Shown here piece after piece: positions 6,070 through 41,586 of a stretch of 64,000 bases of DNA (within the stretch, counting starts at the first letter, position 1; each line of letters starts with the position of its first letter). Source of the DNA: Candidatus Omnitrophota bacterium (GTDB lineage Bacteria; Omnitrophota; Gorgyraeia; Zapsychrales; Fredricksoniimonadaceae); NCBI GenBank assembly GCA_903860135.1, contig CAIOPG010000009.1, forward strand, positions 175,805 to 239,804, in the 5' to 3' direction. Below the pieces are notes generated by a model. The model saw nothing but the letters and a program-made list of their open reading frames with translations, did no database searches and was not told the origin of the DNA. The position numbers were made by a program, and so were the translations under genes.

Positions 6070-6350
6070 TCCATGATCCTTGGGACTTTATAAGCATTAT
6101 CCTGATGTTCGATCGCAAAAGAGAAAGCTTCGGCGGCAGAAAGACCTGGCTCGGGCACATCCTCCCGCACCACATTCTCGACATTCAATACATGGCTCGT
6201 CGGCGTTACCGCCGAAACATCCAGCGAATCCAGCTTGGCCGCATAATGCAAGATAGCTTCCAGGTCCCCTGCCAGCTTGAGGGCTTCCACCTCATCGAGA
6301 TGAAGCCGCGCCAGGCCGCTGATATAATTGACTGTTTCAAGTGTGATCAT
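6066..6350 (-). CDS. gatC: Glu-tRNA(Gln) amidotransferase subunit C
   Basis: 94 aa GatC-like, forming a gatCAB operon. Confidence 0.85.
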
Positions 6351-6432
6351 GGCTTATCCCTTTAAAAAAGAAATGATTTTAACACCAGGCAAGATCAGGC
6401 ACAAGGAGAAACTCCAGGAAAGACGTATACGT

Positions 6433-10799: not shown

Positions 10800-10801
10800 C
10801 C

Positions 10802-27080: not shown

Positions 27081-27092
27081 TATAGCGTCACT

Positions 27093-27839: not shown

Positions 27840-27841
27840 GC

Positions 27842-28474
27842 CTAATAACCCCCGGCATTTTCTCGGAAAGTGATGCTGACTTGAGGATTGTCCGTTGTGC
27901 CAGCTGTAAGTGCCCCGGCACTCACAGCCGCGCCAGCAGACGGTGTTTTTCGTCCAACGACGGTCATCTGAAAATAATATTCTCCGGTAGCCCCATCAGC
28001 CACCAGCACAGGATCAGCAATATTGGCATGTGTAAACATATCTTTGACAACATACCCCTCAAAGGTATCTCCCGTAGTACAAGTACCCACTGCCGTCAAT
28101 TCACAACTATATACCGCTGTCTGATCAAGATCACCCGGCTTACTGAAGCAAGTCCAGTTGTCATCTGTGTAAATCTCGGGTGTGAATGCTCCCGATACCT
28201 GGACATCATGCCGAAAACAAAGTGACGAATTGGTGTTATTCAAGTAAATATTTACGCCTGTATCCGAAGGCGATCCATGAAGGCTCCGCACACTCATCCG
28301 TATCTTGTTCACTAAGTATTGAGCTTGGATGTTAATCAAGGCTTCCGAAGAAACATTACTGCCACTCTTGCGCAGTCCATAATCCACACTAAAAATGGCT
28401 GCCATCATGAAGGTGACAATAATGCTCGCCACAATAAGTTCAGCCATTGTAACGGCAGAAGAAGATACTTTCAT
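27842..28474 (-). CDS. Minor (pseudo)pilin-like protein with non-canonical class III leader
   Basis: Inferred start MKVSSSAVTMAELIVASIIV at 28474, giving a 4-nt overlap with the upstream gene. Glu at +5 and a hydrophobic helix, then a Thr/Gly-rich C-terminus. Confidence 0.5.
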   Translation of the reverse strand: MKVSSSAVTMAELIVASIIVTFMMAAIFSVDYGLRKSGSNVSSEALINIQAQYLVNKIRMSVRSLHGSPSDTGVNIYLNNTNSSLCFRHDVQVSGAFTPEIYTDDNWTCFSKPGDLDQTAVYSCELTAVGTCTTGDTFEGYVVKDMFTHANIADPVLVADGATGEYYFQMTVVGRKTPSAGAAVSAGALTAGTTDNPQVSITFRENAGGY

Positions 28475-28476
28475 AA

Positions 28477-28830
28477 TCACCAATTTACCGTCACAGTAAC
28501 CTGGCGCGTTGTCCCGAAGCCAGCTACAACCGTGTAACTGGCTGATGTCATCGAGGTGCAATTGGGATAGGATGCCACAGTAACAGCATGCGCACCGAGC
28601 GTAAGCACGCCCGTACTCCATGTAGAACCCGCCACCGACTTATTCAAGCTATCCAGTATCTCTTTACCGCATAACCCCGCAACCATCCTCGCTTCCGATC
28701 CACGCCCCGAGACCCGCGTTTGGACAATGGTAGCCAAAACCCCCGCAGATGCCACCACAAAAATAACAGACGCGACAATAACCTCGGTCATAGAAAAACC
28801 TGCCTGATCCGTATAAAATTTCATGGACAA
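28477..28830 (-). CDS. Minor pilin / pseudopilin (prepilin-type N-terminal cleavage/methylation domain)
   Basis: Leader ...DQAG|FSMTEVIVASVIFV with Glu+5. Confidence 0.6.
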   Translation of the reverse strand: MSMKFYTDQAGFSMTEVIVASVIFVVASAGVLATIVQTRVSGRGSEARMVAGLCGKEILDSLNKSVAGSTWSTGVLTLGAHAVTVASYPNCTSMTSASYTVVAGFGTTRQVTVTVNW

Positions 28831-29210
28831 TTAGCCCCCGCGCATGAAGGATTAGTTCCGGCCACAACTGGACTTGCTAATGTGACCGTGACCGTCAGAC
28901 CAGATCCAATACTGCCCACACATGTCCCGCTACCACAGGAATACGACACCCCGTCAGCAATAATATGTGTAGCCAACGCCGTATTGATAGCATTGATATC
29001 AGCAGCTACCAGATTAGTGCCGTTGTTATACAAACGATACTGGGCATTGGCGGCATGAATGATACTCAAATTATCCACAACAGAACGCCCGCGCGTGCGA
29101 TCAATCGTCTTAATAAACTGCGGGATAGCCATACCAACCAATATTCCGGAAATGACAAAAATAACCATTAACTCAATCATGGTAAAAGCTTCATTATAAA
29201 GTTTAGTCAT
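28821..29210 (-). CDS. Type IV pilin, family A paralog 1 (C-terminal Cys loop)
   Basis: Inferred start MTKLYNEA|FTMIELMVIFV. The ATG overlaps the stop of paralog A2 (ATGA). Motifs IIHAANA, AINTAL and a C-terminal C..G.NCP. Confidence 0.7.
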   Translation of the reverse strand: MTKLYNEAFTMIELMVIFVISGILVGMAIPQFIKTIDRTRGRSVVDNLSIIHAANAQYRLYNNGTNLVAADINAINTALATHIIADGVSYSCGSGTCVGSIGSGLTVTVTLASPVVAGTNPSCAGANCP

Positions 29211-29581
29211 GGACAACTTGTTCCTGTACATGTCGCAACGCCCGAACTTGTGTTCGGAGTTGTTACAACAAATCCCGTACCCGTAGCCGTGCATTCCGTA
29301 CCTGAAGAACAAGAATATGTGGCACCATCAGCCTTAATATTTAACCCGAGAGCCGTATTTATGGCAGCCACATCTCCAGCCGTAGTATTAGCTCCAGAAC
29401 GTGAAAGAAAGAGGGCATTAGCCGCATGAATAATCGAAATGTTCGTCATGGCCGAACGCGCCTTTGACCGTAAAATAGTTTTTGAAAACTGCGGAACAGC
29501 AAATGCGGCAATGATTGAAATGATGCTCAAAACAACAATAAGTTCAATCAGCGTAAACCCGCTACGCATAAAATACCTCAT
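29207..29581 (-). CDS. Type IV pilin, family A paralog 2
   Basis: MRYFMRSG|FTLIELIVVL leader. Same IIHAANA/AINTAL motifs and a C-terminal CTGTSCP. Confidence 0.7.
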   Translation of the reverse strand: MRYFMRSGFTLIELIVVLSIISIIAAFAVPQFSKTILRSKARSAMTNISIIHAANALFLSRSGANTTAGDVAAINTALGLNIKADGATYSCSSGTECTATGTGFVVTTPNTSSGVATCTGTSCP

Positions 29582-29979
29582 GGGCAACTTGAACCAGAAC
29601 AAGATGGATTTGAGTCACTTAACGCAGTAGCCAACGTGAGCGTCTCTGTAAACCCTGAACCTGTCGCAAGGCATGTCCCTGAATCAGTACAGGAATAAGT
29701 CACTCCATTCGACGTGATCTTTAACTCCAGAGCCGTATTAATGGCCACTAAATTTCCGGCTGTAGATGCATTAACATTTGAATTATTATTACGTAAACGA
29801 TAATACCCATTAGCCGCGTGGATCAGATTAAGATTGGCGATCCCTGCACGTGCATAGGCACGCTTGGTACTTTTTGAAAGAAGCGTGGTCGCAAAAATTG
29901 CTAAAATACCAACAAGCGCCAACACAATTATCATTTCAATGAGCGTAAAAGCCTGACGCATAGTTGGTCTCATGCGCAC
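29578..29979 (-). CDS. Type IV pilin, family A paralog 3
   Basis: MRMRPTMRQA|FTLIEMIIVL. LIHAANG, AINTAL and a C-terminal CSGSSCP. Confidence 0.7.
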   Translation of the reverse strand: MRMRPTMRQAFTLIEMIIVLALVGILAIFATTLLSKSTKRAYARAGIANLNLIHAANGYYRLRNNNSNVNASTAGNLVAINTALELKITSNGVTYSCTDSGTCLATGSGFTETLTLATALSDSNPSCSGSSCP

Positions 29980-30389
29980 GGCGTATTAGGACAAATTTTC
30001 TTAAGTGTGTCCGGACATGAACCACACGAAAAAGCACCCGCTGCAGACACACTAACAGTATATGAACCTGTCGCTGGCTGAACAGCGGATTTTATCGTCA
30101 ATGAAACAGCACCCGTTGATGTATTGCACACAGGTGCCGCAAAATTCGTCGGCGTAACCGTTACATCCAGATTGGCACAAGCGGCACTGGTATCATAGGT
30201 GCTTTTTTCAAGATTATACCTTATCTGAGCCGCGTTGAGCGTGTTAAGGACATTAATCCCTTCAGTAAAGATCGTTTGATCCTTCGCTCCTACCATACGC
30301 GGTACAGCCAACGACGCCAATACACCAATGATAACAATCACGACGATAATTTCAATTAATGTAAAAGCAGACGATCGTATTATATTCAT
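29970..30389 (-). CDS. Type IV pilin (distinct, 5 Cys)
   Basis: MNIIRSSA|FTLIEIIVVIVIIGVLA. C-terminal CGSCP...CPNTPCA. Confidence 0.7.
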   Translation of the reverse strand: MNIIRSSAFTLIEIIVVIVIIGVLASLAVPRMVGAKDQTIFTEGINVLNTLNAAQIRYNLEKSTYDTSAACANLDVTVTPTNFAAPVCNTSTGAVSLTIKSAVQPATGSYTVSVSAAGAFSCGSCPDTLKKICPNTPCA

Positions 30390-30401
30390 ACCATTCCAAA
30401 A

Positions 30402-30818
30402 CTAATTCTTCAATGTTGAAAAAATCCCACCCTTTATCTTTGTAACAGTTCCCGCAGGGGCATTCAGCCTAAGCGTGATCGTATCAGCAACTCCTGCACC
30501 ACCTTTTAAAGTAGCTGTCGCACCGCAAGCAGATGCATTCGCACATTCAGTAGCGGTAAATGAATACGTAAAATTAGTTGATGCCGTTGGAAATGAATAG
30601 CCCGATATTGCTGTTATATTATTACATGCCGTATAATCTTCACTGTTCTGAATATAACATTCCTGGACTTTGCGCATCAAAACGCCAAGCTGCATATAAG
30701 CCTCTGCCGCTTTGGCAATATTCACCTGAGCGCTAAGACGCGGCAAAGCTACTGCGGCCAAAACACCAATGATGATAACAACAATGATGATCTCGATTAG
30801 TGTAAAGCCTTTTTTCAT
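30402..30818 (-). CDS. Type IV major pilin, family B paralog 1
   Basis: MKKG|FTLIEIIIVVIIIGVLAAVALP. Near-identical to the next two genes. Ends KGGIFSTLKN. Confidence 0.8.
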   Translation of the reverse strand: MKKGFTLIEIIIVVIIIGVLAAVALPRLSAQVNIAKAAEAYMQLGVLMRKVQECYIQNSEDYTACNNITAISGYSFPTASTNFTYSFTATECANASACGATATLKGGAGVADTITLRLNAPAGTVTKIKGGIFSTLKN

Positions 30819-30836
30819 TACTTACCCCATTTCCAA

Positions 30837-31256
30837 TTAATTCTTTAATGTAGAGAAAATACCGCCCTTGGTTTTTGTAACAGTTCCCGCAGGGGCATTC
30901 AGGGTAAGCGTGATCGTATCAGCAACTCCTGCACCACCTTTTAAAGTAGCTGTCGCACCGCAAGCAGATGCATTCGCACATTCAGTAGCGGTAAATGAAT
31001 AGGTAAAATTACTTGATGCCGTTGGAAATGAATAGCCCGATATTGCTGTTACATTATTACATGCCGTATAATCTTCACTGTTCTGAATATAACATTCCTG
31101 GACTTTGCGCATCAAAACACCAAGCTGCATATAAGCCTCTGCCGCTTTGGCAATATTCACCTGAGCGCTAAGACGCGGCAGTGCTACTGCGGCCAAAACA
31201 CCAATGATGATAACAACAATGATGATCTCGATTAGTGTAAAACCCTTTTTTTTCAT
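30837..31256 (-). CDS. Type IV major pilin, family B paralog 2
   Basis: MKKKG|FTLIE... Differs from paralog 1 at only a few residues. Confidence 0.8.
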   Translation of the reverse strand: MKKKGFTLIEIIIVVIIIGVLAAVALPRLSAQVNIAKAAEAYMQLGVLMRKVQECYIQNSEDYTACNNVTAISGYSFPTASSNFTYSFTATECANASACGATATLKGGAGVADTITLTLNAPAGTVTKTKGGIFSTLKN

Positions 31257-31313
31257 ACATTTCCTTTTTTAGTGTTTTATTAGTATGTTCCTGCATTAAT
31301 AATATTTTTGGAA

Positions 31314-31730
31314 TTAATTCTTCAAAGTTGAAAAAATACCACCCTTTGTTTTTGTAACGGTTCCCGCAGGGGCATTCAGCGTAAGCGTGATAACATCCGC
31401 CGCCGCACCACCTTTTAAAGTAGCTGTCGCACCGCAAGCAGATGCATTCGCACATTCAGTAGCGGTAAATGCATATGTAAAATTACTCGATCCAGTTGGA
31501 AAGGAATAACCAGATATCGCTGTTACATTATTGCATGCCGCATAATCTTCACTATTCTGAACATAACATTCTTGGACTTTGCGCATCAAAACACCAAGCT
31601 GCATATAAGCCTCTGCCGCTTTGGCAATATTCACCTGAGCGCTAAGACGCGGCAACGCTACTGCGGCCAAAACACCGATAATGATAACAACAATGATGAT
31701 CTCGATTAGTGTAAAACCTTTTTTTTTCAT
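31314..31730 (-). CDS. Type IV major pilin, family B paralog 3
   Basis: MKKKG|FTLIE... Near-identical again. Preceded by a conserved 57-nt upstream region. Confidence 0.8.
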   Translation of the reverse strand: MKKKGFTLIEIIIVVIIIGVLAAVALPRLSAQVNIAKAAEAYMQLGVLMRKVQECYVQNSEDYAACNNVTAISGYSFPTGSSNFTYAFTATECANASACGATATLKGGAAADVITLTLNAPAGTVTKTKGGIFSTLKN

Positions 31731-31787
31731 ACATTTCCTTTTTTAGTGTTTTATTAATATCTTCCTGAATTAAAAATATTTTTAAAA

Positions 31788-32207
31788 TTAATTCTTCAAA
31801 GTTGAGAAAATACCCCCCTTTGTTTTTGTAATCGAACCAGCTGAAATATCCAGCTTAAGAGTGATAACATCCGCAGCGTTCGCATTGGTTCCACTGAATG
31901 AAGCTTGACCTACACAATTATTAGCATCTGGACACAGAGAAGAATTAAAATTATATGTAAAATTAGGAGTTACTGGAAATGTATAACCTGATAGAGCTGT
32001 CACCTCGTTGCATCCCGCCATGATGTCACCATTTTGAATATAACATTCCTGGACTTTGCGCATCAGAACACCCAGTTGCCTATAGGCCTCAACGGCTTTT
32101 GTAGTATTAACCTGATTCGTAACACGAGGCATAGCTATCGCTGCTAAGACTCCAATAATTATAACAACAATTATTACTTCAATCAATGTAAACCCATTTT
32201 TATACAC
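31788..32207 (-). CDS. Type IV major pilin, family B paralog 4 (diverged; GTG start)
   Basis: The ORF-track M is a GTG. The more likely start is the second GTG, giving leader (M)YKNG|FTLIEVIIVVIIIGVLAA. Same C-terminus KTKGGIFSTLKN. Confidence 0.65.
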   Translation of the reverse strand: MYKNGFTLIEVIIVVIIIGVLAAIAMPRVTNQVNTTKAVEAYRQLGVLMRKVQECYIQNGDIMAGCNEVTALSGYTFPVTPNFTYNFNSSLCPDANNCVGQASFSGTNANAADVITLKLDISAGSITKTKGGIFSTLKN

Positions 32208-32281
32208 GTATATCCTACCCACATGTTATCTGTATACAAATATGACATATTTAAATAAATAAAGCGAATATAAATAATTAA

Positions 32282-33508
32282 TTATCCTCCGGTAGATAAA
32301 GAAAGTATAGGTAGAAACATCGCGATAACAATTAGACCTATTACACCACCCATGATAACAAGCATAACGGGTTCAATAAGAATGCTGAATCGCTTCAAAA
32401 ATTCTTCAACATTAGCTTTATAATATATGGCGACATTATTCAACATCTTGCCAAGCTCACCGGTTTCCTCGCCAACACGGATCATCTGCACCGTCATCGA
32501 AGGGAAAAATCCACTTCTTTCCATTGGATCTGCCAAAAGCTGCCCCTCACGTACGGCTTCACGCACATTTCTTATAACTTCCGCACAAACCACATTATCC
32601 ACCAGTCTCTCCGATATCTCCAAAGAATAAAGAATGGGGACACCGCTTTCCATAAGGGTGGACATTTGAGATGTAAACTTCTCAATTACAATTAATTTTA
32701 TCATACCACCGAAAATAGGAACTTTAAAAAGAAAAGTCTCAAATTGCTTTCTTCCAAGAGGTGTTTTAATGTAATTCATGAAAAGAAAAATGCTTCCGGC
32801 CCCTCCAGCAATAAGTATAAAAAATCTCTCTTTCAATAATTTGAAAATTGACATCATTATGACCGTGATAGTCGGGAGCTTGATATCCATATCAGAAAAA
32901 ATACGTTCAAATGTAGGCCCGACAAAAAGAGCGAAAAACAAAACAGCTCCGATACAAATAAAACAAAGAACCATCGGATAAACAAGGGCTCCTATAATAG
33001 TAGACTTGAACTTGGCTGTATCCTCCATATATTGTGTCAACTTGTTGAGAACTTTCGGTAATGTACCAGATGCTTCACCAACCTCAATAAGACTGACCCA
33101 AAAAGCAGTAAACACCTTGGGATATTTTGAAATAGCGCTACTGAAAGTACGACCCTGTTCAACATCTGTGACTACCGCCTCAATGATGACGGTTAACCCA
33201 CGACTTTCCAGCTGAGAGCTGATGATCTTGAGCGATCGCATTAACAAAACACCTGCTCCCATCATCGCAGAAAGTTGACGCGCAAAAGAAACAACATCAT
33301 TTAATGAAATATTATTGTGCGAAAACACCCGCTTCTTTGCAACTGACGTCACAGGCTGTTGATTCTCAACAAACTGTTTTACAGCGGTTACAAAAAGCCC
33401 TTTTTGCTGTGCAAACTTAACAGCCTGCTGATCATTAATGGACTCTACAACCTCATTAAATACATGCCCTGAATTATCTTTAGCAGTAACAAGAAATTTG
33501 GCCATCAA
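32282..33508 (-). CDS. pilC: Type IV pilus / T2SS platform protein (PilC/GspF family, two T2SSF domains)
   Basis: 408 aa. Duplicated GspF-like halves, each followed by TM helices. Confidence 0.85.
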   Translation of the reverse strand: MMAKFLVTAKDNSGHVFNEVVESINDQQAVKFAQQKGLFVTAVKQFVENQQPVTSVAKKRVFSHNNISLNDVVSFARQLSAMMGAGVLLMRSLKIISSQLESRGLTVIIEAVVTDVEQGRTFSSAISKYPKVFTAFWVSLIEVGEASGTLPKVLNKLTQYMEDTAKFKSTIIGALVYPMVLCFICIGAVLFFALFVGPTFERIFSDMDIKLPTITVIMMSIFKLLKERFFILIAGGAGSIFLFMNYIKTPLGRKQFETFLFKVPIFGGMIKLIVIEKFTSQMSTLMESGVPILYSLEISERLVDNVVCAEVIRNVREAVREGQLLADPMERSGFFPSMTVQMIRVGEETGELGKMLNNVAIYYKANVEEFLKRFSILIEPVMLVIMGGVIGLIVIAMFLPILSLSTGG

Positions 33509-33523
33509 TTTCCCCAGATCAAT

Positions 33524-35233
33524 TTATATAACAATAGATAAAATTTCCTCAAGGCTCGTGACACCTTCTTCAACCTTCTTCATCCCAACTTCAAAAAGTG
33601 TCGCCATTCCAGCTTTAGATGCTGCGTCCTTCAATTCGTCATAGGAAACATTGTTACCGATCATACGCCGTATAACATCATTAATGGCAAGAACCTCTGA
33701 TACGACCATGCGTCCCCTGTATCCGGTGTGCCCGCATTTATCGCACCCTTTAGCGCGATAAATCAAATCGGTAGACAACTTGATAGACCCCAGATCTTCC
33801 GGCCTCGGTTCATAGGGCTCTTTGCAATCGGCGCATAACTTACGCGCTAAGCGCTGGCTCACAATCATCGTTAATGACGGTGTTAATAAATATGAGGGGA
33901 CACCTATATCCATCAAGCGGCTTATCGCTGACGGTGCGTCATTGGTATGCAGTGTTGAAAGGACAAAGTGACCTGTTAATGCCGCACGCACACATATCTC
34001 TGCTGTCTCAAGATCACGTATTTCACCAACCATAATGATATCCGGATCCTGTCGAAGAAACGATCGTAACGCCTGTGCAAATCCAAAGCCAATATCAGGA
34101 CGCACATGAACCTGGTTAATTCCATCAATGCGGAACTCAACAGGATCTTCTGCTGTCATAATATTCTTGGTGCGATCAAAAACTTCAGAAAGAGAAGAAT
34201 AAAGGGTCGTCGACTTACCACTACCCGTAGGTCCTGTTATAAGAAAAAGACCATACGGAACTTTAAGTGCTTTACGGATGAGTTCTAACTGGGACGCATT
34301 AAATCCAAGCGTAGCCAAATCAAGTTTTACTGCATTCTTATCCAGGATACGCATAACCACTTTCTCTCCCCAAACGGTAGGAACGGTGGACACACGCAGA
34401 TCAACAACACGGTTTTGATCAAACTTTACAGAAATACGCCCATCCTGCGGCAATCGCCTCTCGGCAATGTCAAGCCTAGAAATGATCTTAATGCGCGATA
34501 CGATCGAAGCATGAAGATGTTTTGCCGGCGGAGGGATTTGATAAAGATCACCGTCGATACGATAACGAAGTTCGATCTTGTCCTTAAAAGGTTCGATATG
34601 AATATCACTTGCCCGGTCATCAATAGCCTGCCTGATAATAAGATCCACAAGCTTGATGATCGGCGCTTCTTCGGCTGTTGCGATCAACCTGTCAAGACTT
34701 AACTCCGACTCAGATTTATCATCACCGGATGTTGAGAAATTACTCGAGTCATTCTGCGCTCTTTCAACCGCCTTTCCCCAAGCACCACCCTCATCGGCCA
34801 GATAAAACCGCTCCAATGATTTTAGAATATCGGTACGTGTCGCAATGACAAAGTTTATTTCACAACCAGTCATCTTTTTCAAATTATCGATCATAATAAG
34901 ATCAAATGGATTAAAGATCGCGCATGTCAGTGAATTACCATTCCGATTAAGTAACAATACAAGATTATCTACAGCATACTGATACGAAATAAGCTTTTCA
35001 AGGCCCTGCCCTTTTTGAGGATTCAATAGGCCTGAAGCTTCGGAGGCATATGGAATAAGAAGCTGTGTCCCAAGAGCCACAGCCAAGTCGCTTTCATTAA
35101 TAAATCCCATTTTGACCAAAATTTCTCCGACATGACTCTTGTCGGTCTTTTGGGCATCTATAGCAGACTGGAACTGGGCTTCGGTAATTAAGCCCTTTTT
35201 AATAAGTATTTCACCAAGCTTTAACCGTGCCAT
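33524..35233 (-). CDS. pilB: Type IV pilus assembly / T2SS ATPase (PilB/MshE/GspE family) with N-terminal MshEN c-di-GMP-binding domain
   Basis: 569 aa. N-terminal tandem 24-aa MshEN motifs (KLGEILIKKGLITEAQFQSAIDAQ, a 5-aa spacer, HVGEILVKMGFINESDLAVALGTQ). Walker A GPTGSGKST. C-terminal tetracysteine CADC...CDKC. Confidence 0.9.
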   Translation of the reverse strand: MARLKLGEILIKKGLITEAQFQSAIDAQKTDKSHVGEILVKMGFINESDLAVALGTQLLIPYASEASGLLNPQKGQGLEKLISYQYAVDNLVLLLNRNGNSLTCAIFNPFDLIMIDNLKKMTGCEINFVIATRTDILKSLERFYLADEGGAWGKAVERAQNDSSNFSTSGDDKSESELSLDRLIATAEEAPIIKLVDLIIRQAIDDRASDIHIEPFKDKIELRYRIDGDLYQIPPPAKHLHASIVSRIKIISRLDIAERRLPQDGRISVKFDQNRVVDLRVSTVPTVWGEKVVMRILDKNAVKLDLATLGFNASQLELIRKALKVPYGLFLITGPTGSGKSTTLYSSLSEVFDRTKNIMTAEDPVEFRIDGINQVHVRPDIGFGFAQALRSFLRQDPDIIMVGEIRDLETAEICVRAALTGHFVLSTLHTNDAPSAISRLMDIGVPSYLLTPSLTMIVSQRLARKLCADCKEPYEPRPEDLGSIKLSTDLIYRAKGCDKCGHTGYRGRMVVSEVLAINDVIRRMIGNNVSYDELKDAASKAGMATLFEVGMKKVEEGVTSLEEILSIVI

Positions 35234-35242
35234 AATTTAATC

Positions 35243-36745
35243 CTATTTCTTTTGTACACTCATAGAGTCCATGGCAGAACGAATAATGCTCTGTCTTATC
35301 ACACCGCTACTTTCGCGAATTCCAAGATCAGCAGGAACAGTGTCAACAACGAAATCACTGCCAGGATCCATGACACGGGGGGTAATAAAAATAAGGAGCT
35401 CCCTGTCTTTGGTAGTCGTAGTATCGTGACGGAACACACGCCCGAGAAAAGGAATGTCTCCTAAGACCGGAAGTTTTGTCTGAACTTTTTGTTTCTCAGA
35501 ACGTAACAATCCTCCGAGAACAACAGTTTCACCCGAATGTATCCTCATTTTAACCTTAGCACTACGGATCTCTGTGTCCTTAAAAGTCACCCCGCTATAA
35601 GTTCCACCCAAACGCGCAACAACCACGCGTGGTGAAACAGCCAGTAAAATATCACCTGTCATCAAATTTAACTGAGGCGTGACCGTCAACGTAATCCCCG
35701 TCTCAACTCGTTCAGGTTCAACAGTGGATCCTTGCGTTATTGTCGCCGCTGCCGTCACTTTAACACCAATAGCTTCCGACGCAGTAATCTTAATCTGTGC
35801 CGTTTCATTATTCATGGTCCAAATTCTTGGGCGCGCTAAATTCCTAGCATCTGTTGACGTCTTTAAAAACTGTAACATAGCCGAAAAAGCATTTCCGCCC
35901 ATCGCGCCCTGTGAATACGTAACCTCTGTGCCCCCCTTACTAAGTGCATTCTTTTGGTCAAGAGGGAAATAAAAACTCCTCCCTCCCAGTCCTTTGAAAT
36001 CATATAAGGTGTTGCCAAACTTAACACCTATCTCATCAGCTACTTCCTTAGAAACATCTATCATCTGGACTTCAATCAATATCTGGGCAACCGGCACATC
36101 CAGTTTAGCCAATGTTCGTTCGATCAAAGGAAAATTTGTATCTTCATCAGAAATGATCAGGCTGTTGGTCCGTGAATCTTCAGCGATCTTGGCCGAAGCT
36201 GTTAATACTGTTTTCAAAATATCCACGAGAGCAACGCTCGTCGTTACTGTATTGCTCCCAGCACTCGACGATCCATTACCCCCCCCTTCTTCTGCGGTAA
36301 TTCCGAATGTTGATTGCAACTTTGAAGATGCAACAGTAGCATATTTTAAAGGATAAACACGCGTTATGATATTCTTTTCAGCCTTGATATTATCGATCAT
36401 CAAAATATTGTCATTATTATCATATGAATAAGAAAGTCCATTTGCCGTCAAAATTTTTTTCAAAGCATCCTCAACAGGAACAGCATCAAGAAAAAGTGTT
36501 ATAGGGTCGGTTTTAACAGCGTCTGAAACAATAAAATTGGCACCTATCTGACGAGAGAAGGCCTTCAAAACATCCCTGATATCTGCATTCTTGAAATCAA
36601 GGGAAACAAGTTGAGAATATTGTGGAAGTATAAAACTGTTCTGACTACCAGCTGAAGTAGTGGCAGAAAAAACTTGAGTAAATAAAGAAATTTGAATAAT
36701 ATTGGTAAGTAAAAATATAAATAAATATTTATTTTTTAAACCCAT
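35243..36745 (-). CDS. pilQ: Secretin (PilQ/GspD family)
   Basis: 500 aa. Signal peptide and N-domains. C-terminal secretin core VVLGGLLRSEKQKVQTKLPVLGDIPFLGRVF. Confidence 0.85.
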   Translation of the reverse strand: MGLKNKYLFIFLLTNIIQISLFTQVFSATTSAGSQNSFILPQYSQLVSLDFKNADIRDVLKAFSRQIGANFIVSDAVKTDPITLFLDAVPVEDALKKILTANGLSYSYDNNDNILMIDNIKAEKNIITRVYPLKYATVASSKLQSTFGITAEEGGGNGSSSAGSNTVTTSVALVDILKTVLTASAKIAEDSRTNSLIISDEDTNFPLIERTLAKLDVPVAQILIEVQMIDVSKEVADEIGVKFGNTLYDFKGLGGRSFYFPLDQKNALSKGGTEVTYSQGAMGGNAFSAMLQFLKTSTDARNLARPRIWTMNNETAQIKITASEAIGVKVTAAATITQGSTVEPERVETGITLTVTPQLNLMTGDILLAVSPRVVVARLGGTYSGVTFKDTEIRSAKVKMRIHSGETVVLGGLLRSEKQKVQTKLPVLGDIPFLGRVFRHDTTTTKDRELLIFITPRVMDPGSDFVVDTVPADLGIRESSGVIRQSIIRSAMDSMSVQKK

Positions 36746-36749
36746 ACTA

Positions 36750-37220
36750 TCAATCTTTCAATAATAACTTGTAAAGAAATTCGTTGTAATCTATTTCCAC
36801 ACGGCCTTTGCGGATAGCCAAAATCCTTACCCCCTCTGATCTATCCCCCAAACCCAATATATTTCCATTTAAAATAACCATTGGATTCCTTGTTTTATAA
36901 AATATTCCTGTCACTTTCAGCACAGGCAACGAGGCTATTGATAATTTCCTTACAGGTTGCGCTGAGGGTATCGCAACAAAGTGCTTTATTTCAGGAATAA
37001 CAGCAACTATCGGTCTATCTACTACTGGCTTAACTAAATTATCAGCTTCCTTGCGAAAATCTTTACTAACAAGATCTGGTCTGGCTTTAAACGGATGGAA
37101 AGGCTCCCCAAGAGACTCTATCATCATTTCAAACGGAAGCTTATTAGTCTCATTGGCGTAAGAAAGAGTTGAATTAAAATGAAATAATTGAAAACTATAG
37201 ATAAAAAGAATATTATACAT
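36750..37220 (-). CDS. PilP/GspC-like inner-membrane lipoprotein-like component (weak)
   Basis: Short TM/signal region then a beta-rich C-terminus (LKVTGIFYKTRNPMVILNG..LGDRSEGVRILAI). Sits between PilO-like and the secretin. The start is inferred after the pilO stop. Confidence 0.35.
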   Translation of the reverse strand: MYNILFIYSFQLFHFNSTLSYANETNKLPFEMMIESLGEPFHPFKARPDLVSKDFRKEADNLVKPVVDRPIVAVIPEIKHFVAIPSAQPVRKLSIASLPVLKVTGIFYKTRNPMVILNGNILGLGDRSEGVRILAIRKGRVEIDYNEFLYKLLLKD

Positions 37221-37236
37221 TAAAAAAAGATGATGC

Positions 37237-37866
37237 CTACTTCTTTTTAAAATTTTTATGTTCATTATCTTCCACCAGTTGAAGCAACGAAATGGTAACA
37301 TCCAGCGTCATCGCATCCGTCTGGACTCCTGAATTAACCGGATTGTACTTAATCAACAGGCTATCCAATTTGATCATGTACCCGGAAGATTCCATATCAT
37401 GAACAAATAATAGCATATCCTTGACATTAAGGGAAGAAGCACTAAAACTCATACAAATAGAACGAAAAAAACCATCATTGCTAGTCTGCAATGGATTAAA
37501 AGCATCAATTGTAATTCGTCGCCGCGTGGCACGCCCTGTAACATAAGATATAAAATCAGCCTTGACCAATCCCAAAGGCATCTTGCACATATAATCAGTC
37601 AGATATTTGTTGCTTTGCTCAAGATCCTGGATAGGCTGTCTTTTTGATTGCAAAATCTTTTTTCTCGACGCAAGAGACTGATATTGATTAAAATTTTTAG
37701 TTGTAAGAAAAACTATTACACAAAATCCCAATAAAACAATCAAAGAATTAGTCGCTAAAACTAAATTCTGATTTACATAATGGTTACAATCCTTAATAAA
37801 TTTTGAAGGATTATTTAGATATATTTCGAAATTCTTTAAATCATCAAGATTCATTTCGCCTCGCAC
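37237..37866 (-). CDS. PilO-like inner-membrane pilus alignment protein (weak)
   Basis: 209 aa with a single TM near residue 45 and a coiled-coil-like region. Position is between pilMN and the pilP-like gene. Confidence 0.4.
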   Translation of the reverse strand: MRGEMNLDDLKNFEIYLNNPSKFIKDCNHYVNQNLVLATNSLIVLLGFCVIVFLTTKNFNQYQSLASRKKILQSKRQPIQDLEQSNKYLTDYMCKMPLGLVKADFISYVTGRATRRRITIDAFNPLQTSNDGFFRSICMSFSASSLNVKDMLLFVHDMESSGYMIKLDSLLIKYNPVNSGVQTDAMTLDVTISLLQLVEDNEHKNFKKK

Positions 37867-39455
37867 GTAATCGAAAACGCTGTGACTTTTCTATTATCAT
37901 ATTCTCGAACCTGTAAAGAAACAATCTTAATTTGTGTGAAATTAGTGGCGAACAAATTATCGCTATTTAAAGCATTAAAGAAATGATTAACCCTTTCAAA
38001 TTCTATATTGTTGTCCTTCAAAGACACATACCCCGAAAAGGTCATTGCCGTCTTGGTCTGAAGTGAATAATAATCAACCTCTTTGTTCCCGGGCTCAGGG
38101 ACCTTGCGCGCCGAAACAGGCTCATCTTTAAAAGACAAACTAACAGACTCAAGCCAAAATCCGGATGGCAGTCGTTTGACCAGCCGCACCAACATCTTTG
38201 TCGCCCGTGCATCGAAAGGCAATGATTTCAATGAAAATAACTTCTTGACATTCTTCATTTTCTTCTGAACGGCGTCTGACTCATCTATATCAACGTATTC
38301 CCCGATCTCCTGCTCAAGATTAACAACTTCCTGTCTAAACTTAGACAGAAGCTGATCAGCAAAGAATGCAACAGAAAAGATCAGTGTAAAAACACCGGCC
38401 CCCACCGCCAAGGGCAAAACCAATGCTTGCCTCCTCTGGTCAATTTCAACTTGCTTGAGAGAAACCTGCTGTTTGGAACCTTCAAACAAATTAAAGTCAA
38501 TAACAGTAACCACTTTACTCATCATGGCCACGCCGTAGGCATACACAGCCGCCATTGTATTGCAATCATTGTGATCTACAAGTCTAAAAATATCAACAAT
38601 CTCAACATTGACCCCGAGTTCCTCTCCCATCTTGTCCCACAAAGCATTATTTCCGCCAATGGATATGGCCACCATTCTCTGGACTTCCTCCCCGCCATAC
38701 TGACGCAAGAAGAATTCGGAAGAAATACGGATCTCATTGAAAACTTTGGAACGTAGCTCATCATCGATCTGAAGAGTGCCAACACCCTGATGCACACCTC
38801 CCTGAAGATTAAACTCACGGATAAACTTGACATACCCTTTTTCACAAATAAGGAGTTCTCCGATATAACCATCGACATAAACAATCGCCGTTAATTCATC
38901 GGGATCAACGATCTTTCTAAAAACCAATGCACGGTAAAGACTAGCCGACGCCGGTTCACTGTAAACAACATTTATACCTGCTTGCATTAAAGCATCCGCA
39001 TGTTTTTCAAAAACATCTTTACGGATAGCAACAAATATAATGCCAATCTGCCGCGGATTACTTCCTAGAATATTCGAAGGAAAATATGTGTACGACAACT
39101 CATCAATTGGGAAAGGAATATACTTCTTGGCTTCGAAGATAACAACATCCTGTATCTCGCTTGACTTCATCCACGGAATACTGAACCAGCGAATAATAAT
39201 ATCTTTTGAAGGGATAGAAAGAAATGTTTCCTGCGTTGAAAAACCTTTATTTCGAACAGATTTTTGCAGTGCATCTAGAATCTGCATATCATGCGGTAAA
39301 GACTTCTTGTCAGCAGTGGAAGCCACGTCTTCCGGCGATACAAAAGGAACAAATGTCCCTATGGCGGGTGCGTTGCTCTCCAGTTGAACCAGCGTGAATC
39401 CGCTTGATCCCGAGTAAACCCCTAATCGCTTCTCACTGGCCATACCCAACCTCAT
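37851..39455 (-). CDS. pilM: PilM-PilN fusion (actin-like ATPase domain + C-terminal TM/PilN-like periplasmic region)
   Basis: 534 aa. A PilM-like actin fold in the first ~350 aa, then the TM helix ALVLPLAVGAGVFTLIFSVAFF and a ~150-aa C-terminal region. The likely start is the SD-preceded ATG at 39443. Confidence 0.65.
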   Translation of the reverse strand: MRLGMASEKRLGVYSGSSGFTLVQLESNAPAIGTFVPFVSPEDVASTADKKSLPHDMQILDALQKSVRNKGFSTQETFLSIPSKDIIIRWFSIPWMKSSEIQDVVIFEAKKYIPFPIDELSYTYFPSNILGSNPRQIGIIFVAIRKDVFEKHADALMQAGINVVYSEPASASLYRALVFRKIVDPDELTAIVYVDGYIGELLICEKGYVKFIREFNLQGGVHQGVGTLQIDDELRSKVFNEIRISSEFFLRQYGGEEVQRMVAISIGGNNALWDKMGEELGVNVEIVDIFRLVDHNDCNTMAAVYAYGVAMMSKVVTVIDFNLFEGSKQQVSLKQVEIDQRRQALVLPLAVGAGVFTLIFSVAFFADQLLSKFRQEVVNLEQEIGEYVDIDESDAVQKKMKNVKKLFSLKSLPFDARATKMLVRLVKRLPSGFWLESVSLSFKDEPVSARKVPEPGNKEVDYYSLQTKTAMTFSGYVSLKDNNIEFERVNHFFNALNSDNLFATNFTQIKIVSLQVREYDNRKVTAFSITCEAK

Positions 39456-39511
39456 TGCTTTTATAAAAATGAATACTTTTAGCTAATAATCAATCGCAAG
39501 AAACGTATGCA

Positions 39512-39841
39512 TCAGTAACTAACATCCATCGTGAATGCCCTTGTTGCCCCTGGTCCTCCGCCGGCTACTTGGGTATAATGAACCGAATATGTTGTTCCGT
39601 CAACATATTCAGAGAAATCCGTAAGTGTTGTCGAACCACCGGCGTAAATCTCGCGTGCCCACCATAAAGCTTTTTTGGCAATAAGTTCCGCCTGAAGATG
39701 CTTTCTTTCACGTTCGGAAATAAGTGCCTGTGAATAATTTCGCGATAACACACCTAAAACCAAGATTGACATAAGCATAACAGCCGCAATAACTGTCAGT
39801 AAAATTACCCCCCGCTCACTACCGTATTCTCTTCTAATCAT
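39512..39841 (-). CDS. PilX/GspK-like minor pilin
   Basis: Inferred start MIRREYGSERG|VILLTVIAAVMLM. The ORF-track start is a 37-aa upstream extension overlapping the next gene. Confidence 0.45.
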   Translation of the reverse strand: MIRREYGSERGVILLTVIAAVMLMSILVLGVLSRNYSQALISERERKHLQAELIAKKALWWAREIYAGGSTTLTDFSEYVDGTTYSVHYTQVAGGGPGATRAFTMDVSY

Positions 39842-40073
39842 GAATTCCCTCCTCAAGATAACTCTGACAAAGTGGACAACGCACAACCTCAGTCTTTCCG
39901 TTACTGATAATGATATGGCTGCAATAGGGGCATTGCCTAACAATACCCGCACTTGATGCCTCCCTGTTTACGCCATCATCCACAACGGCATATTTAAACC
40001 ACATAAACCCAAAAAAAATAATCATGACAGAAAGACAAAGACTTACGCCCAAGGCAATATCTATCGTGATCAT
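39834..40073 (-). CDS. Small membrane protein with C-terminal CPxC...CPLC zinc-ribbon
   Basis: 79 aa. N-terminal TM (LGVSLCLSVMIIFFGFMWF), then CPYCSHII-(12 aa)-CPLCQSY. Overlaps both neighbours by 4-8 nt. Confidence 0.5.
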   Translation of the reverse strand: MITIDIALGVSLCLSVMIIFFGFMWFKYAVVDDGVNREASSAGIVRQCPYCSHIIISNGKTEVVRCPLCQSYLEEGIHD

Positions 40074-40498
40074 GGCAACCTCAAACGAAGATCTAATGGT
40101 GCTACAGGAACATCCTCAACAACTGCCACAGAAGGTTCATCGCGATCCTCAGGAACAACCCTTACACCGGAAAAATGAAATATATCCTTATCCTCCGGTG
40201 GCATACTTCTATAAAAAGATTCAGGTTTCTCTGCCTGCAAGGAGCGCAACCACCCTCCTGATAAGTATAATGGTACGGTACTATCATTAATCTTTTCTTC
40301 AACTTGCAGGACTGAAACTTCATGACGCGAAGGAATAACTTCCTGCGGGCTTAAAATATTGCCCAAGAAGACAACATCGAGTTTGTACGTGTTGTTAACA
40401 GCTCCTTTAAATGAAAAGATCACAAAAGTTAAAGCGATGGCGTGCATGATGCCCGCCGTTAATACCCCTATCATCGGAGAATGCCACTTCACTAGCAT
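40070..40498 (-). CDS. TonB/TolA-like N-terminal anchor protein lacking a recognisable C-terminal domain
   Basis: 142 aa. TM (IGVLTAGIMHAIALTFVIF) with a conserved His. Acidic/Pro-rich C-terminus (PEDRDEPSVAVVEDVPVAPLDL). Start coincides with the exbD stop. Confidence 0.35.
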   Translation of the reverse strand: MLVKWHSPMIGVLTAGIMHAIALTFVIFSFKGAVNNTYKLDVVFLGNILSPQEVIPSRHEVSVLQVEEKINDSTVPLYLSGGWLRSLQAEKPESFYRSMPPEDKDIFHFSGVRVVPEDRDEPSVAVVEDVPVAPLDLRLRLP

Positions 40499-40896
40499 TA
40501 CTTCTCACGATCCGTAGCAATATTAATATGCTCGATCCCCATGCTGCGGGCAAGATTCAGGATGTCCACAACACGACCAACCGATGCCCGGTGATCCGCC
40601 TTGATCAAGATGGCTCTGGCATTGCCGCCAGGAAATGCTAAAAACTCTTTAAGTTCACCCAGCGTGATCAAATGATTATTCACATACACAACATTCTCGC
40701 CCGTCACAATGATCGTCAAACTTGACGGAGAGGCTATGTCGCTTGTCACTCCTTTGGGCAAGGCGATCTTTAAGAACGATGATTTTGAAATAAATAAAAT
40801 AAACGCTATAAAACCCAATAGAATAAATAATACATTCAAAAAAGGAAAGAAATTAAATTTTGGCACACATAATTTCAAATGCCTACGGAAATCCAT
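40498..40896 (-). CDS. exbD: ExbD/TolR-family biopolymer transport protein
   Basis: 132 aa. N-terminal TM and periplasmic ExbD fold (LTIIVTGENVVYVNNHLITLGEL, ILIKADHRASVGRVVDIL). Confidence 0.75.
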   Translation of the reverse strand: MDFRRHLKLCVPKFNFFPFLNVLFILLGFIAFILFISKSSFLKIALPKGVTSDIASPSSLTIIVTGENVVYVNNHLITLGELKEFLAFPGGNARAILIKADHRASVGRVVDILNLARSMGIEHINIATDREK

Positions 40897-40899
40897 GCC

Positions 40900-41568
40900 C
40901 TAAGCCCCTCCGGCTAAAGGAACATTAATAATCTGCGTCATTTCACGCACAAGCGTCGAAGCAACCTGCTCCATCTGCAGAACAGTACCCTCGATCACCT
41001 TAAGAAAATACCGGTGCGCGATCATGGCAAAGATCCCGACAAGGGAAGCCGCCGCTGTTGTAATAAGCGCTTGCCCAAGACCAGCCGTAACATCCATCAA
41101 ACTGGCAGGATTTACAGCTACCGCACGAAGCTGTATTGTATGCAATAACCCACACAAACCAACCACCGTCCCCAGAAGGCCGATCAAAGGCACTAATTGA
41201 GCCATAAATACTAAAAGATCCAACCCTTTTTCCATCGCGCGTACCTCATACCTGGCCGCATCTTCCATCGCCACTTGTATCTCTGGTGCCGATTGACCAA
41301 AACTCAACAATCCTGCTTTTAAAATTCGTGCCATCGAAGAATCTGCGGCATCACACGCTGAAAGGGCACCCATGGTATTATTGTTTTGAATAAAACCGAT
41401 CACTTGAATAGAAAGGACAGCAATACCTTCGCGCACTTCTCCTAGAAACAAGAATCTTTCAATGACCAAAGCCGTAACACTGACGGAACATATCAAAACA
41501 GGAACCATGACAGGACCACCTGTCAATAATAATCGCCATGCGCCAATCCCGGTTACAGCATCGATCAT
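40900..41568 (-). CDS. exbB: MotA/TolQ/ExbB-family proton channel
   Basis: 222 aa with 3 TM. Conserved C-terminal LVGIFAMIAHRYF. Confidence 0.8.
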   Translation of the reverse strand: MIDAVTGIGAWRLLLTGGPVMVPVLICSVSVTALVIERFLFLGEVREGIAVLSIQVIGFIQNNNTMGALSACDAADSSMARILKAGLLSFGQSAPEIQVAMEDAARYEVRAMEKGLDLLVFMAQLVPLIGLLGTVVGLCGLLHTIQLRAVAVNPASLMDVTAGLGQALITTAAASLVGIFAMIAHRYFLKVIEGTVLQMEQVASTLVREMTQIINVPLAGGA

Positions 41569-41586
41569 TTAGGCATCCTTCGGCTA

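Follow-up and report, generated by a model that had tools for sequence, protein, structure and literature searches.

The window analysed here, a 64-kb stretch of DNA from an uncultured Candidatus Omnitrophota bacterium, harbored a type IV filament locus on the minus strand, between uvrA and rsmE. Its genes ran from a PilM/N fusion through two ORFs, the secretin, the ATPase and the platform protein to at least eight pilin-like genes:

39512..44070, minus strand: upstream neighbours, a TPR protein (827 aa), ExbB, ExbD and small ORFs (Pfam)
37851..39455, minus strand: PilM-like protein of actin fold with a fused PilN-like C-terminus, 534 aa (Pfam PilM_2, weak PilN)
36750..37866, minus strand: two ORFs without annotation (209 and 183 aa) in the interval from PilM/N to the secretin (by position)
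35243..36745, minus strand: secretin, 500 aa (Pfam Secretin, Secretin_N, STN)
33524..35233, minus strand: type IV filament extension ATPase of the PilB/GspE/MshE family, 569 aa (ORF and translation)
32282..33508, minus strand: platform protein PilC/GspF, 408 aa (Pfam T2SSF, two stretches)
28821..32222, minus strand: eight prepilin-type genes (motif G/FTLIE; Pfam N_methyl in all eight)
30402-32222, minus strand: four tandem major-pilin paralogs (sequences, pairwise identities)
27842..28830, minus strand: two candidates for pilin-like proteins or minor pilins (117 and 259 aa), end of the locus (N-termini GFSMTEV and AVTMAELIV)

The PilM/N fusion scored 67.3 bits on PilM (TIGR01175) and 62.8 bits on the Amuc_1101 family, and the secretin gene ended 9 nt upstream of where the ATPase gene starts. 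The 209- and 183-aa ORFs, whose position was kept in relatives and which gave no family match in Pfam/NCBIfam scans except a sub-threshold T2SSB, may by their position stand for PilO/PilP or MshJ/MshK. Three of the major-pilin copies were 92 to 97% identical, and the paralogs carried two Cys pairs each. The 117- and 259-aa minor-pilin candidates displayed hydrophobic N-termini and were conserved in L076, with no Pfam family match. The TPR-ExbB-ExbD order beside pilus genes was repeated in L005, L006, L076, P0003 and P0018; that these neighbours are part of the pilus machine is uncertain.

Related Omnitrophota shared the placement of the locus and its arrangement (uvrA, then TPR-ExbB-ExbD ... 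secretin-ATPase-PilC-pilins, then rsmE). The locus had a low GC content (0.35-0.45 vs 0.50-0.55), and a recent horizontal acquisition was considered and rejected since the same arrangement occurred in relatives at 53 to 78% ATPase identity. The TPR-ExbB-ExbD module was invariably adjacent to the uvrA-to-rsmE filament locus.

On the preferred reading, 33524-35233 encodes a hexameric ATPase that powers extension (assembly) in a type IV filament machine. The ORF was present on the minus strand with a translation identical to the one quoted in an earlier sequence-only reading, and was organized as follows:

35063..35221, minus strand: MshEN_N module, residues 5-57 (53 residues), predicted c-di-GMP-binding four-helix bundle (NF053729, AF2, Foldseek)
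35150..35221, minus strand: half-motif I, KLGEILIKKGLITEAQFQSAIDAQ, residues 5-28 (regex; maps to VcMshE residues 9-32)
35135..35149, minus strand: spacer KTDKS, residues 29-33, 5 residues as in MshE (sequence)
35063..35134, minus strand: half-motif II, HVGEILVKMGFINESDLAVALGTQ, residues 34-57 (regex)
34790..35050, minus strand: MshEN_C alpha/beta subdomain, about residues 62-148 (Pfam MshEN 80-148, AF2)
33539..34675, minus strand: ATPase core, residues 187-565 (Pfam T2SSE)
34208-34234, minus strand: Walker A GPTGSGKST, residues 334-342 (motif positions)
34136-34150, minus strand: Asp box EDPVE, residues 362-366 (motif positions)
34013-34048, minus strand: Walker B DPDIIMVGEIRD, residues 396-407 (motif positions)
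33947-33973, minus strand: His box GHFVLSTLH, residues 421-429 (motif positions)
33734-33835, minus strand: tetracysteine CADC (467-470)...CDKC (497-500) (motif positions)

Pfam T2SSE (PF00437) aligned with residues 187-565 (455 bits, model 3-369/370), and the catalytic motifs (Walker A, Asp box, Walker B, His box and C-terminal tetracysteine) were all intact. The best match in the GTDB representative set was 60% identical. As the earlier reading had stated, this was the sole ATPase of its kind in the window: tblastn with the ATPase core found no second homologue, and Pfam detected no T2SSE in the other window ORFs of at least 150 aa nor in flanks of about 10 kb (about 83 kb in all).

The ATPase N-terminus is supported as a genuine MshEN-type module, with a Gly/Gln skeleton and spacing as in verified binders. 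The tandem 24-residue motifs and their 5-residue spacer KTDKS, first noticed at residues 4-56 in the earlier reading, were confirmed by sequence and NF053729, the numbering being off by one (residues 5-57 counting Met1). The proposed MshEN profile search was run: NF053729 'c-di-GMP_motif', a curated NCBIfam model with a cut-off of 38 bits, aligned residues 5-57 with its positions 1-53/53 at 56.9 bits on the full protein (E=1.3e-15) and 62.1 bits on the isolated N-terminus, while Pfam MshEN matched residues 80-148. A half-motif regex allowing conservative substitutions retrieved these two sites only in the six frames of the 64-kb window and none in 100 shuffles, so the module match is well beyond chance. 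No second MshEN-like segment was found elsewhere in the window by tblastn or regex. With phmmer, residues 3-144 matched the MshEN crystal chain 5htl (E=2.4e-13), and PilB and PilF N-domains were also matched. Such modules on PilB/GspE-type ATPases are known from more than 10,000 proteins, for which a curated annotation model already exists.

As in the MshEN domain of Wang et al. (2016), each half had Gly at its positions 3 and 10 and Gln at its position 24 (G7, G14, G36, G43, Q28 and Q57). These four Gly and two Gln were invariant in close homologues, the 5-residue spacing was retained in 97 of 120 of them, and the motif was strongly conserved across the clade. In the AF2 model (pLDDT 84.4), the N-terminus formed helices 6-12, 18-30, 35-41 and 47-58, followed by an alpha/beta subdomain in which three helices surround three strands (strands 92-98, 101-106 and 125-130; helices 84-90, 112-122 and 133-145; pLDDT about 91). 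Foldseek superposed the model on 5htl with TM 0.77/0.84 and an rmsd of 2.5 A, and matches to 5htl, the 8pdk family and 7lkm all had a probability of 1.00.

Vibrio cholerae MshE (VC0405, 5HTL) shares with the Omnitrophota ATPase the succession of MshEN_N, MshEN_C and T2SSE core, platform and pilin genes downstream, and the equivalents of Gly11/18/40/47 and Gln32/61, although only 20 of 53 motif residues were identical. Full-length relatives were nearest among PDB entries in PilB of Myxococcus xanthus (3JC8, 498 bits) and Geobacter metallireducens (5TSG, 489 bits), both alike in length and in the order of domains, and their N-termini carry the tandem motif too (61.6 and 67.6 bits on NF053729). 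The GSPII-B domain of Thermus thermophilus PilF (8PDK, 8PKZ), which binds c-di-GMP at 6 nM, scored 62.9 bits on the same model with a fold TM of about 0.71-0.77. It likewise has Lys at motif-I position 1 and a non-Arg residue at motif-II position 1; it differs by Leu instead of His at the latter, a second motif shorter by one residue, and retention of Leu at L25/L29. Three GSPII domains stand in tandem in PilF, against one in the Omnitrophota ATPase.

The module had been called textbook, an overstatement: 5 of 14 key positions were conservatively substituted relative to VcMshE (K5=R9, F21=L25, I25=L29, H34=R38, V35=L39), and neither half matched the literal consensus RLGxx[LVI][LVI]xxG[LVI][LVI]xxxxLxxxLxxQ or its extended (R/K/L)LG... 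version by regex. The Gua2 triad (L6, L50, L54) was retained, whereas the Gua1 triad L25/L29/L39 was wholly replaced by F21/I25/V35. I and V/I are the clade norm at the Gua1 positions, and F21 is rare even in close homologues (4 of 97). K5 and H34 took position 1 of the two halves, where a cationic or hydrophobic cap is expected. Literature searches returned no experimental precedent for the replacement of Gua1 triad L25/L29/L39 by F/I/V or of R38 by H. K at motif-I position 1 is found in the highest-affinity binders (GSPII-B, 6 nM; DgPilB2, 13.5 nM; CtPilB, 53 nM), and L or P at motif-II position 1 is compatible with c-di-GMP binding.

[quoted passage not shown] The X. citri PilB N-domain in complex with PilZ (7LKM, 7LKO) was indeed the best Foldseek match of the AF2 model by E-value (TM 0.81); it is also an N-terminal regulatory domain, and senses c-di-GMP indirectly via FimX and PilZ. 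Its sequence similarity to the Omnitrophota domain was nevertheless weak (25 bits, against 53.7 bits for MshE and 63 bits for M. xanthus PilB), and no PilZ gene lay within the locus. The canonical PilB and GspE proteins from V. cholerae and from P. aeruginosa are reported to have failed to bind c-di-GMP, and the non-binding PilF GSPII-A reached 55.2 bits on NF053729, over cut-off and near the 62.1 bits of the Omnitrophota domain. The NF053729 score was consequently rejected as a predictor of binding, and as the model also passes a non-binder, sequence alone cannot prove c-di-GMP binding. Documented non-binders, however, have lost Gly or Gln residues of the skeleton (G11V, G40L and Q61V in XpsE; H33, A41 and R62 at skeleton positions in GSPII-A), whereas the Omnitrophota ATPase retained all six skeleton residues. 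Its substitutions were all conservative, hydrophobic or cationic, in a motif strongly kept clade-wide. Restoring the consensus in GSPII-A did not regain binding, which indicates that context outside the motif matters; with only 4 residues before the motif, the Omnitrophota protein has no N-terminal helix extension like the site-blocking one of GSPII-A. Taken on both sides, a degenerate, non-binding fold appears unlikely, and c-di-GMP binding by the N-domain is probable.

Substitution of one entire base pocket (F21/I25/V35, with K5) might alternatively have adapted the domain to a different cyclic dinucleotide, for example 3'3'-cGAMP, which MshEN is reported to bind weakly. MshEN owes its base specificity to the backbone amides of Gly-x dipeptides, which read O6 and N7, and not to hydrophobic side chains, and both G-E dipeptides (G7-E8, G36-E37) were intact. 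The I and V/I residues are usual for the clade, nothing else hints at a different ligand, and a change of nucleotide seems most improbable.

The best-supported reading, to which we would give a probability of roughly 70%, is that of an extension ATPase whose MshEN_N bundle likely binds one c-di-GMP and so controls filament extension. The first 57 residues would fold into a four-helix bundle accommodating a single c-di-GMP molecule, the backbone amides of G7-E8 and G36-E37 reading the two guanines and Q28 and Q57 holding the ribose-phosphates. Hydrophobic triads would sandwich the bases (F21/I25/V35 on Gua1, L6/L50/L54 on Gua2), with K5 and H34 as caps. By analogy with MshE and PilF, occupancy would shift the motor to productive pilin polymerisation via the PilC platform and the secretin, and high c-di-GMP would favour a piliated, adhesive state. 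As c-di-GMP changes the ATPase rate of MshE by only about 10%, the shift would probably work through engagement with the machine. Both nucleotide binding by the N-domain and the direction of regulation are what we infer from these analogues. Gating of filament assembly by c-di-GMP, proposed in the earlier reading, is thus kept as the likeliest function by homology with MshE, PilF and other PilB, the binding itself being predicted.

Assignment of the locus to T4aP, T2SS or MSHA by curated HMMs failed, no component reaching any MshL, GspD/E/F/G or PilB/Q/M equivalog cut-off in NCBIfam scans. The ATPase scored 621.7 bits on PilB (TIGR02538, cut-off 675.65) over its full length and 586.8 bits on GspE (TIGR02533, cut-off 630.25), and its shared core was a practical tie (PilB 596.5 vs GspE 586.8 bits). 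The secretin scored 195.7 bits on GspD (cut-off 351.35), 195.1 on PilQ and 124.7 on MshL (cut-off 250.2), all under their cut-offs, as were the platform scores (316.9 bits on GspF, cut-off 424; 291 on PilC) and those of the pilin-like proteins on GspG (42.6-46.6 bits, cut-off 88.85). The MSHA/T2SS label of the sequence-only reading is therefore not established. No MshM-type ATPase gene was found in the locus, and a 930-aa upstream P-loop protein considered for that role was rejected, being UvrA. The locus order (PilM/N, two ORFs, secretin, ATPase, platform, pilins) resembles the msh arrangement, mshIJKL..EG..pilins.

An alternative is a T2SS-like machine, in which a short periplasmic pseudopilus would drive proteins out via the secretin and secretion would be gated by c-di-GMP, should it be bound, in line with a proposal made for P. 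aeruginosa PA14_29490 (HxrA). The latter, a c-di-GMP-binding T2SS ATPase likened here by description, falls on the GspE branch in the tree of N-domains and lies in a T2SS operon. The platform was best on GspF, GspG was the top score of the pilin-like proteins, one upstream small ORF had a GspK-like N-terminus, and secretin-E-F-pseudopilin order is like gspDEFGHIJK; the locus is also without PilT, and conserved T2SS-like loci have been described across Omnitrophota. All Gsp scores were, however, far under equivalog cut-offs, full-length PDB scores favoured PilB over GspE, and the PilM/N fusion with two genes before the secretin matches the order of msh/pilMNOPQ but not that of gsp operons. An exposed and possibly variable fibre is suggested by the four tandem major-pilin paralogs, each with two Cys pairs, and pilT, a retraction motor without known T2SS role, was carried by the orthologous L006 and the related L089. 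A secretion machine is accordingly considered rather unlikely, and the product is presumably a surface pilus, not a pseudopilus.

The absence of PilT from the locus was confirmed: tblastn and Pfam detected none in the window, nor was one seen in the roughly 10 kb past each end. The non-retractile fibre that had been deduced from it gained no support, because pilT is often unlinked from its pilus locus: the pilT of V. cholerae (VC0462) is not linked to mshE (VC0405) and nevertheless powers MSHA retraction. PilT proteins were common in Omnitrophota MAGs in a homologue search, none of them on contigs carrying window sequence, and two PilT matches on long contigs were from other samples. One MAG contig found via a PilT homologue, which may not be Omnitrophota, had pilT inside an ilv/aro biosynthetic cluster. 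In L006, a syntenic orthologue locus of Omnitrophota, PilT came directly after the pilins (470.9 bits, cut-off 319.1). A PilT-like ORF directly followed pilB in 44 of 80 loci labelled Myxococcota, Desulfobacterota or Nitrospirota (tblastn), and none directly followed the ATPase gene in the studied locus and the syntenic Omnitrophota loci. It is conceivable, and very doubtful, that the uvrA-to-rsmE locus encodes a distinct PilT-independent type IV filament subtype, with a single bifunctional MshEN-ATPase switched between extension and retraction by c-di-GMP, and that it might act with TPR-ExbB-ExbD in attaching these host-dependent nanobacteria to a partner.

Neither GGDEF, EAL, HD-GYP nor PilZ domains were detected by Pfam in window ORFs of at least 150 aa or in the flanks of about 10 kb (about 83 kb), and no Rfam match to a c-di-GMP riboswitch was obtained in window or flanks. 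GGDEF and PilZ components of c-di-GMP signalling are reported in Omnitrophota. In L089, which may not be Omnitrophota and whose ATPase was 47% identical, PilZ and HD-GYP-type genes adjoined a secretin-ATPase-PilC-pilin-PilT locus; the pilT of L006 was HMM-confirmed, unlike that of L089.

The MshEN domain is a widespread and well-described c-di-GMP sensor, and its occurrence here leaves current understanding otherwise unchanged. Its natural K/F/I/H/V motif variant would add a data point on the tolerance of the MshEN pocket for substitutions. The finding also makes regulation testable in a phylum from which no free-living member has been cultured. Should the domain bind c-di-GMP, attachment by the Omnitrophota pilus, the presumed basis of a host-dependent or predatory lifestyle in this phylum, would be controlled by a second messenger, as it is in Vibrio and Thermus.

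The ORF and protein of the sequence-only reading were borne out: 33524..35233 (minus strand) encodes a PilB/GspE/MshE-family ATPase of 569 aa, with the translation as quoted. Its start lies 9 nt past the stop codon of the secretin gene, with an AGGA Shine-Dalgarno-like element in front, and the N-terminus was correctly called, since close homologues display the same MARL(K/R)LGEIL start. The N-terminal MshEN module claimed at residues 4-56 was found, with numbering that was off by one and becomes 5-57 when the initiator Met is counted:

MshEN motif I, minus strand, first half-motif of module 5-57: KLGEILIKKGLITEAQFQSAIDAQ
MshEN spacer, minus strand, between motifs I and II: KTDKS
MshEN motif II, minus strand, second half-motif of module 5-57: HVGEILVKMGFINESDLAVALGTQ

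The profile search suggested in that reading was positive, as NF053729, a domain model of NCBIfam with the title 'cyclic di-GMP-binding domain, MshE-related', matched residues 5-57 over all of its 53 positions and scored 56.9 bits (cut-off 38). Pfam placed MshEN at 80-148 and T2SSE at 187-565 (455 bits), and the core motifs of the ATPase (Walker A, Asp box, Walker B, His box and tetracysteine site) were all found. A half-motif regular expression allowing conservative substitutions matched only the two halves of the module in the six frames of the window, and had no match in 100 shuffles. The tandem MshEN module in the ATPase is real and far above chance.

NF053729 was calibrated on PDB-derived sequences of characterised domains, with the following scores:

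V. cholerae MshE: 86.1 bits, c-di-GMP binder
PilF GSPII-C: 84.0 bits, c-di-GMP binder
Geobacter PilB: 67.6 bits, classed neither as binder nor as non-binder
PilF GSPII-B: 62.9 bits, c-di-GMP binder
Window ATPase domain, isolated N-terminus: 62.1 bits, putative binder
M. xanthus PilB: 61.6 bits, classed neither as binder nor as non-binder
PilF GSPII-A: 55.2 bits, non-binder, yet above the cut-off

Since the non-binder GSPII-A passes the cut-off, a profile match indicates homology and not binding, and annotation based on NF053729 over-predicts c-di-GMP binders. Three syntenic orthologues scored 62-63 bits.

An AlphaFold2 model of residues 1-152 (alignment of 23 homologues, mean pLDDT 84.4) displayed helices at 6-12, 18-30, 35-41 and 47-58, followed by a subdomain of three strands and three helices. 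Foldseek against the PDB matched the model to X. citri PilB-N/PilZ complexes (TM 0.81), to MshEN with c-di-GMP (5HTL; TM 0.77/0.84, rmsd 2.5 A) and to PilF GSPII structures, so that direct binders and indirect systems are not told apart by the predicted fold. An MshEN fold that is silent or binds protein instead appears unlikely; by sequence, MshE (53.7 bits) and M. xanthus PilB (63 bits) are the nearer relatives of the domain, while X. citri PilB-N scores 25 bits.

The motif was mapped onto V. cholerae MshE residues 7-70 from a PDB alignment, with contact roles taken from Wang et al. 2016 (PMC5013675). The window ATPase kept the glycines G7, G14, G36 and G43, the phosphate/ribose-binding glutamines Q28 and Q57, and the hydrophobic triad of the second guanine (Gua2; L6, L50, L54), while five positions were changed (MshE R9 to K5, L25 to F21, L29 to I25, R38 to H34 and L39 to V35). 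The Gua1 triad of MshE consists of L25, L29 and L39, so the entire Gua1 pocket is rebuilt from F, I and V. In the 97 close homologues that share the skeleton, K occurs at motif I position 1 in 20 (R in 77), I is the norm at the L29 position (62), H is common at the R38 position (29), V is found at the L39 position in 10 (I in 69), and F is rare at the L25 position (4, versus 92 with L). All five substitutions are conservative. A domain changed to another ligand seems highly improbable. The motif had been called textbook, which holds for the Gly/Gln skeleton and the Gua2 triad and fails at the five substitutions, neither half literally matching the published consensus in its original or extended (R/K/L) form.

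Loss of Gly or Gln residues marks the documented non-binders, whereas the window ATPase keeps all four glycines and both glutamines. XpsE carries G11V, G40L and Q61V among other changes, and PilF GSPII-A displays H33, S39, A41 and R62. When the consensus was restored in GSPII-A, binding did not return, since its site is also obstructed by contacts between the subdomains and by an extended, N-capped helix (PMC12002112); with four residues only ahead of the motif, such an N-capped-helix block cannot exist in the window ATPase. K at motif I position 1 is shared with the tightest known binders, whose affinities are 6 nM (PilF GSPII-B), 13.5 nM (D. geothermalis PilB2) and 53 nM (C. thermophilum PilB), and binding persists with L or P at motif II position 1 (PMC11731258). 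By analogy with MshE, we give a probability of roughly 70% to the reading that the N-terminal four-helix bundle of the ATPase would take up one c-di-GMP, its occupancy tilting the hexameric motor in favour of polymerising pilin. As c-di-GMP changes the ATPase rate of MshE by only ~10%, the signal would probably pass via engagement with the machine.

Gating of the filament by c-di-GMP is thus the plausible part of the sequence-only reading, while its inferences on machine type and retraction were not established. The locus is arranged as follows, in 5' to 3' order of the minus strand:

Minus strand, upstream end of the locus: UvrA
39512-44070, minus strand, directly upstream of the pilus genes: TPR protein of 827 aa, ExbB, ExbD and small ORFs
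37851-39455, minus strand: PilM-like protein with PilN-like C-terminus, 534 aa
Minus strand, before the secretin: two unannotated ORFs
35243-36745, minus strand, directly before the ATPase: secretin
33524..35233, minus strand, between secretin and platform: ATPase
Minus strand, after the ATPase: PilC/GspF platform
Minus strand, after the platform: eight prepilin-type genes, including four tandem major-pilin paralogs
Minus strand, after these: two further pilin-like ORFs
Minus strand, downstream: RsmE, TPR protein, RecA, RecX and AlaS

The machine is best described as a type IV filament system of divergent type. An MSHA/T2SS-like label was not established, all locus components falling under the curated equivalog cut-offs for T4aP, T2SS and MSHA. 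A T2SS-like pseudopilus, with gating of secretion and not of a fibre, would be compatible with c-di-GMP binding and is an unlikely alternative. Over the same core region the ATPase scored 596.5 with PilB and 586.8 with GspE. The PilM/N fusion and secretin weakly matched the pilus-complex families Amuc_1101 and Amuc_1098 of Akkermansia, and some pilins weakly matched a Verrucomicrobia/Chthoniobacter cassette protein, which hints at a filament-machine lineage common to Verrucomicrobia and the window locus. The four major-pilin paralogs (30402-32222, minus strand; 144, 138, 139 and 138 aa) have two Cys pairs each, and three are 92-97% identical. A second assembly of the window organism is identical apart from ~541 bp missing inside the pilin array (L001:13633-13734 compared with L002:13633-14275), so that either the number of pilin copies varies or the repeat collapsed during assembly. 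No prepilin peptidase was found in the window.

As the sequence-only reading held, no second T2SSE-family ATPase was found in the window. GGDEF, EAL, HD-GYP and PilZ were absent from its other ORFs from 150 aa upward, as were all of these and a second T2SSE ATPase within one 10-kb step past each window end, and no c-di-GMP riboswitch was found in window or flanks. GGDEF domains and PilZ genes have been reported from Omnitrophota genomes (preprint 10.1101/2023.11.21.568195). That the fibre is non-retractile does not follow from the lack of PilT in the locus, on five counts. In V. cholerae, c-di-GMP-bound MshE promotes extension, and MSHA retraction needs pilT (VC0462), a gene unlinked to mshE (VC0405) (PMC7096442, PMC4624772). 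The syntenic Omnitrophota locus L006 encodes PilT right after the pilins (470.9 bits with the PilT model TIGR01420, cut-off 319.1), and a homologue search with it returned numerous Omnitrophota MAG proteins that bear the name PilT. Two MAG contigs were reached through PilT homologues from that search. L088 carries pilT (6001-7065) and an A24 prepilin peptidase (10672-11457) far from any pilB, in an ilvD-ilvB-ilvN-pilT-ilvC-leuA-aroE-pilD-aroC biosynthetic cluster. L089 encodes, in this order, secretin, MshEN-ATPase (47% identity), PilC, two pilins and PilT, with PilZ and CHASE2-HD-GYP-type genes at most 6 kb away (L089:594-7080, L089:9252-13080); a machine of this kind may have a c-di-GMP circuit close by. 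A PilT-like ORF directly followed pilB in 44 of 80 more distant pilB loci (tblastn, HMM-checked for L006 only), while PilT is usually absent within 10 kb in syntenic Omnitrophota loci; the missing local PilT is a clade trait, not evidence about retraction.

The identical ATPase protein was found on metagenomic contigs of 257-273 kb (ENA ERZ18667937 and ERZ27313599), and the nearest named homologues are from Candidatus Omnitrophota MAGs. Although G+C is lower in the filament locus (26000-44000; 0.35-0.45) than in flanking housekeeping genes (0.50-0.55), the locus is vertically inherited, since relatives whose ATPases are 53-78% identical (L005, L006, L076, P0003, P0018) have the entire uvrA-to-rsmE arrangement too. 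A recent island was ruled out by the uvrA/rsmE position conserved there. The TPR-ExbB-ExbD module with its small ORFs has the same place in each of these relatives; this proton-motive-force module may be functionally linked to the pilus locus. All confidently annotated genes of the window (1-64000) lie on the minus strand, GC skew being negative throughout; they make up one long run of genes in a single direction, chiefly for biosynthesis and housekeeping (arg, dap/lys, his, gatCAB, secDF, recA, alaS).

Type IVa pilus genes have been described as near-universal in Omnitrophota (PMC10066038). By eye, the tandem motif was present in most of ~75 extracted N-termini of phylogenetically diverse PilB relatives, and more than 10,000 MshEN proteins, including ATPases of gsp and pil operons, have been reported (Wang et al., PMC5013675). 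The module of the window ATPase belongs to this well-known and very widespread kind.
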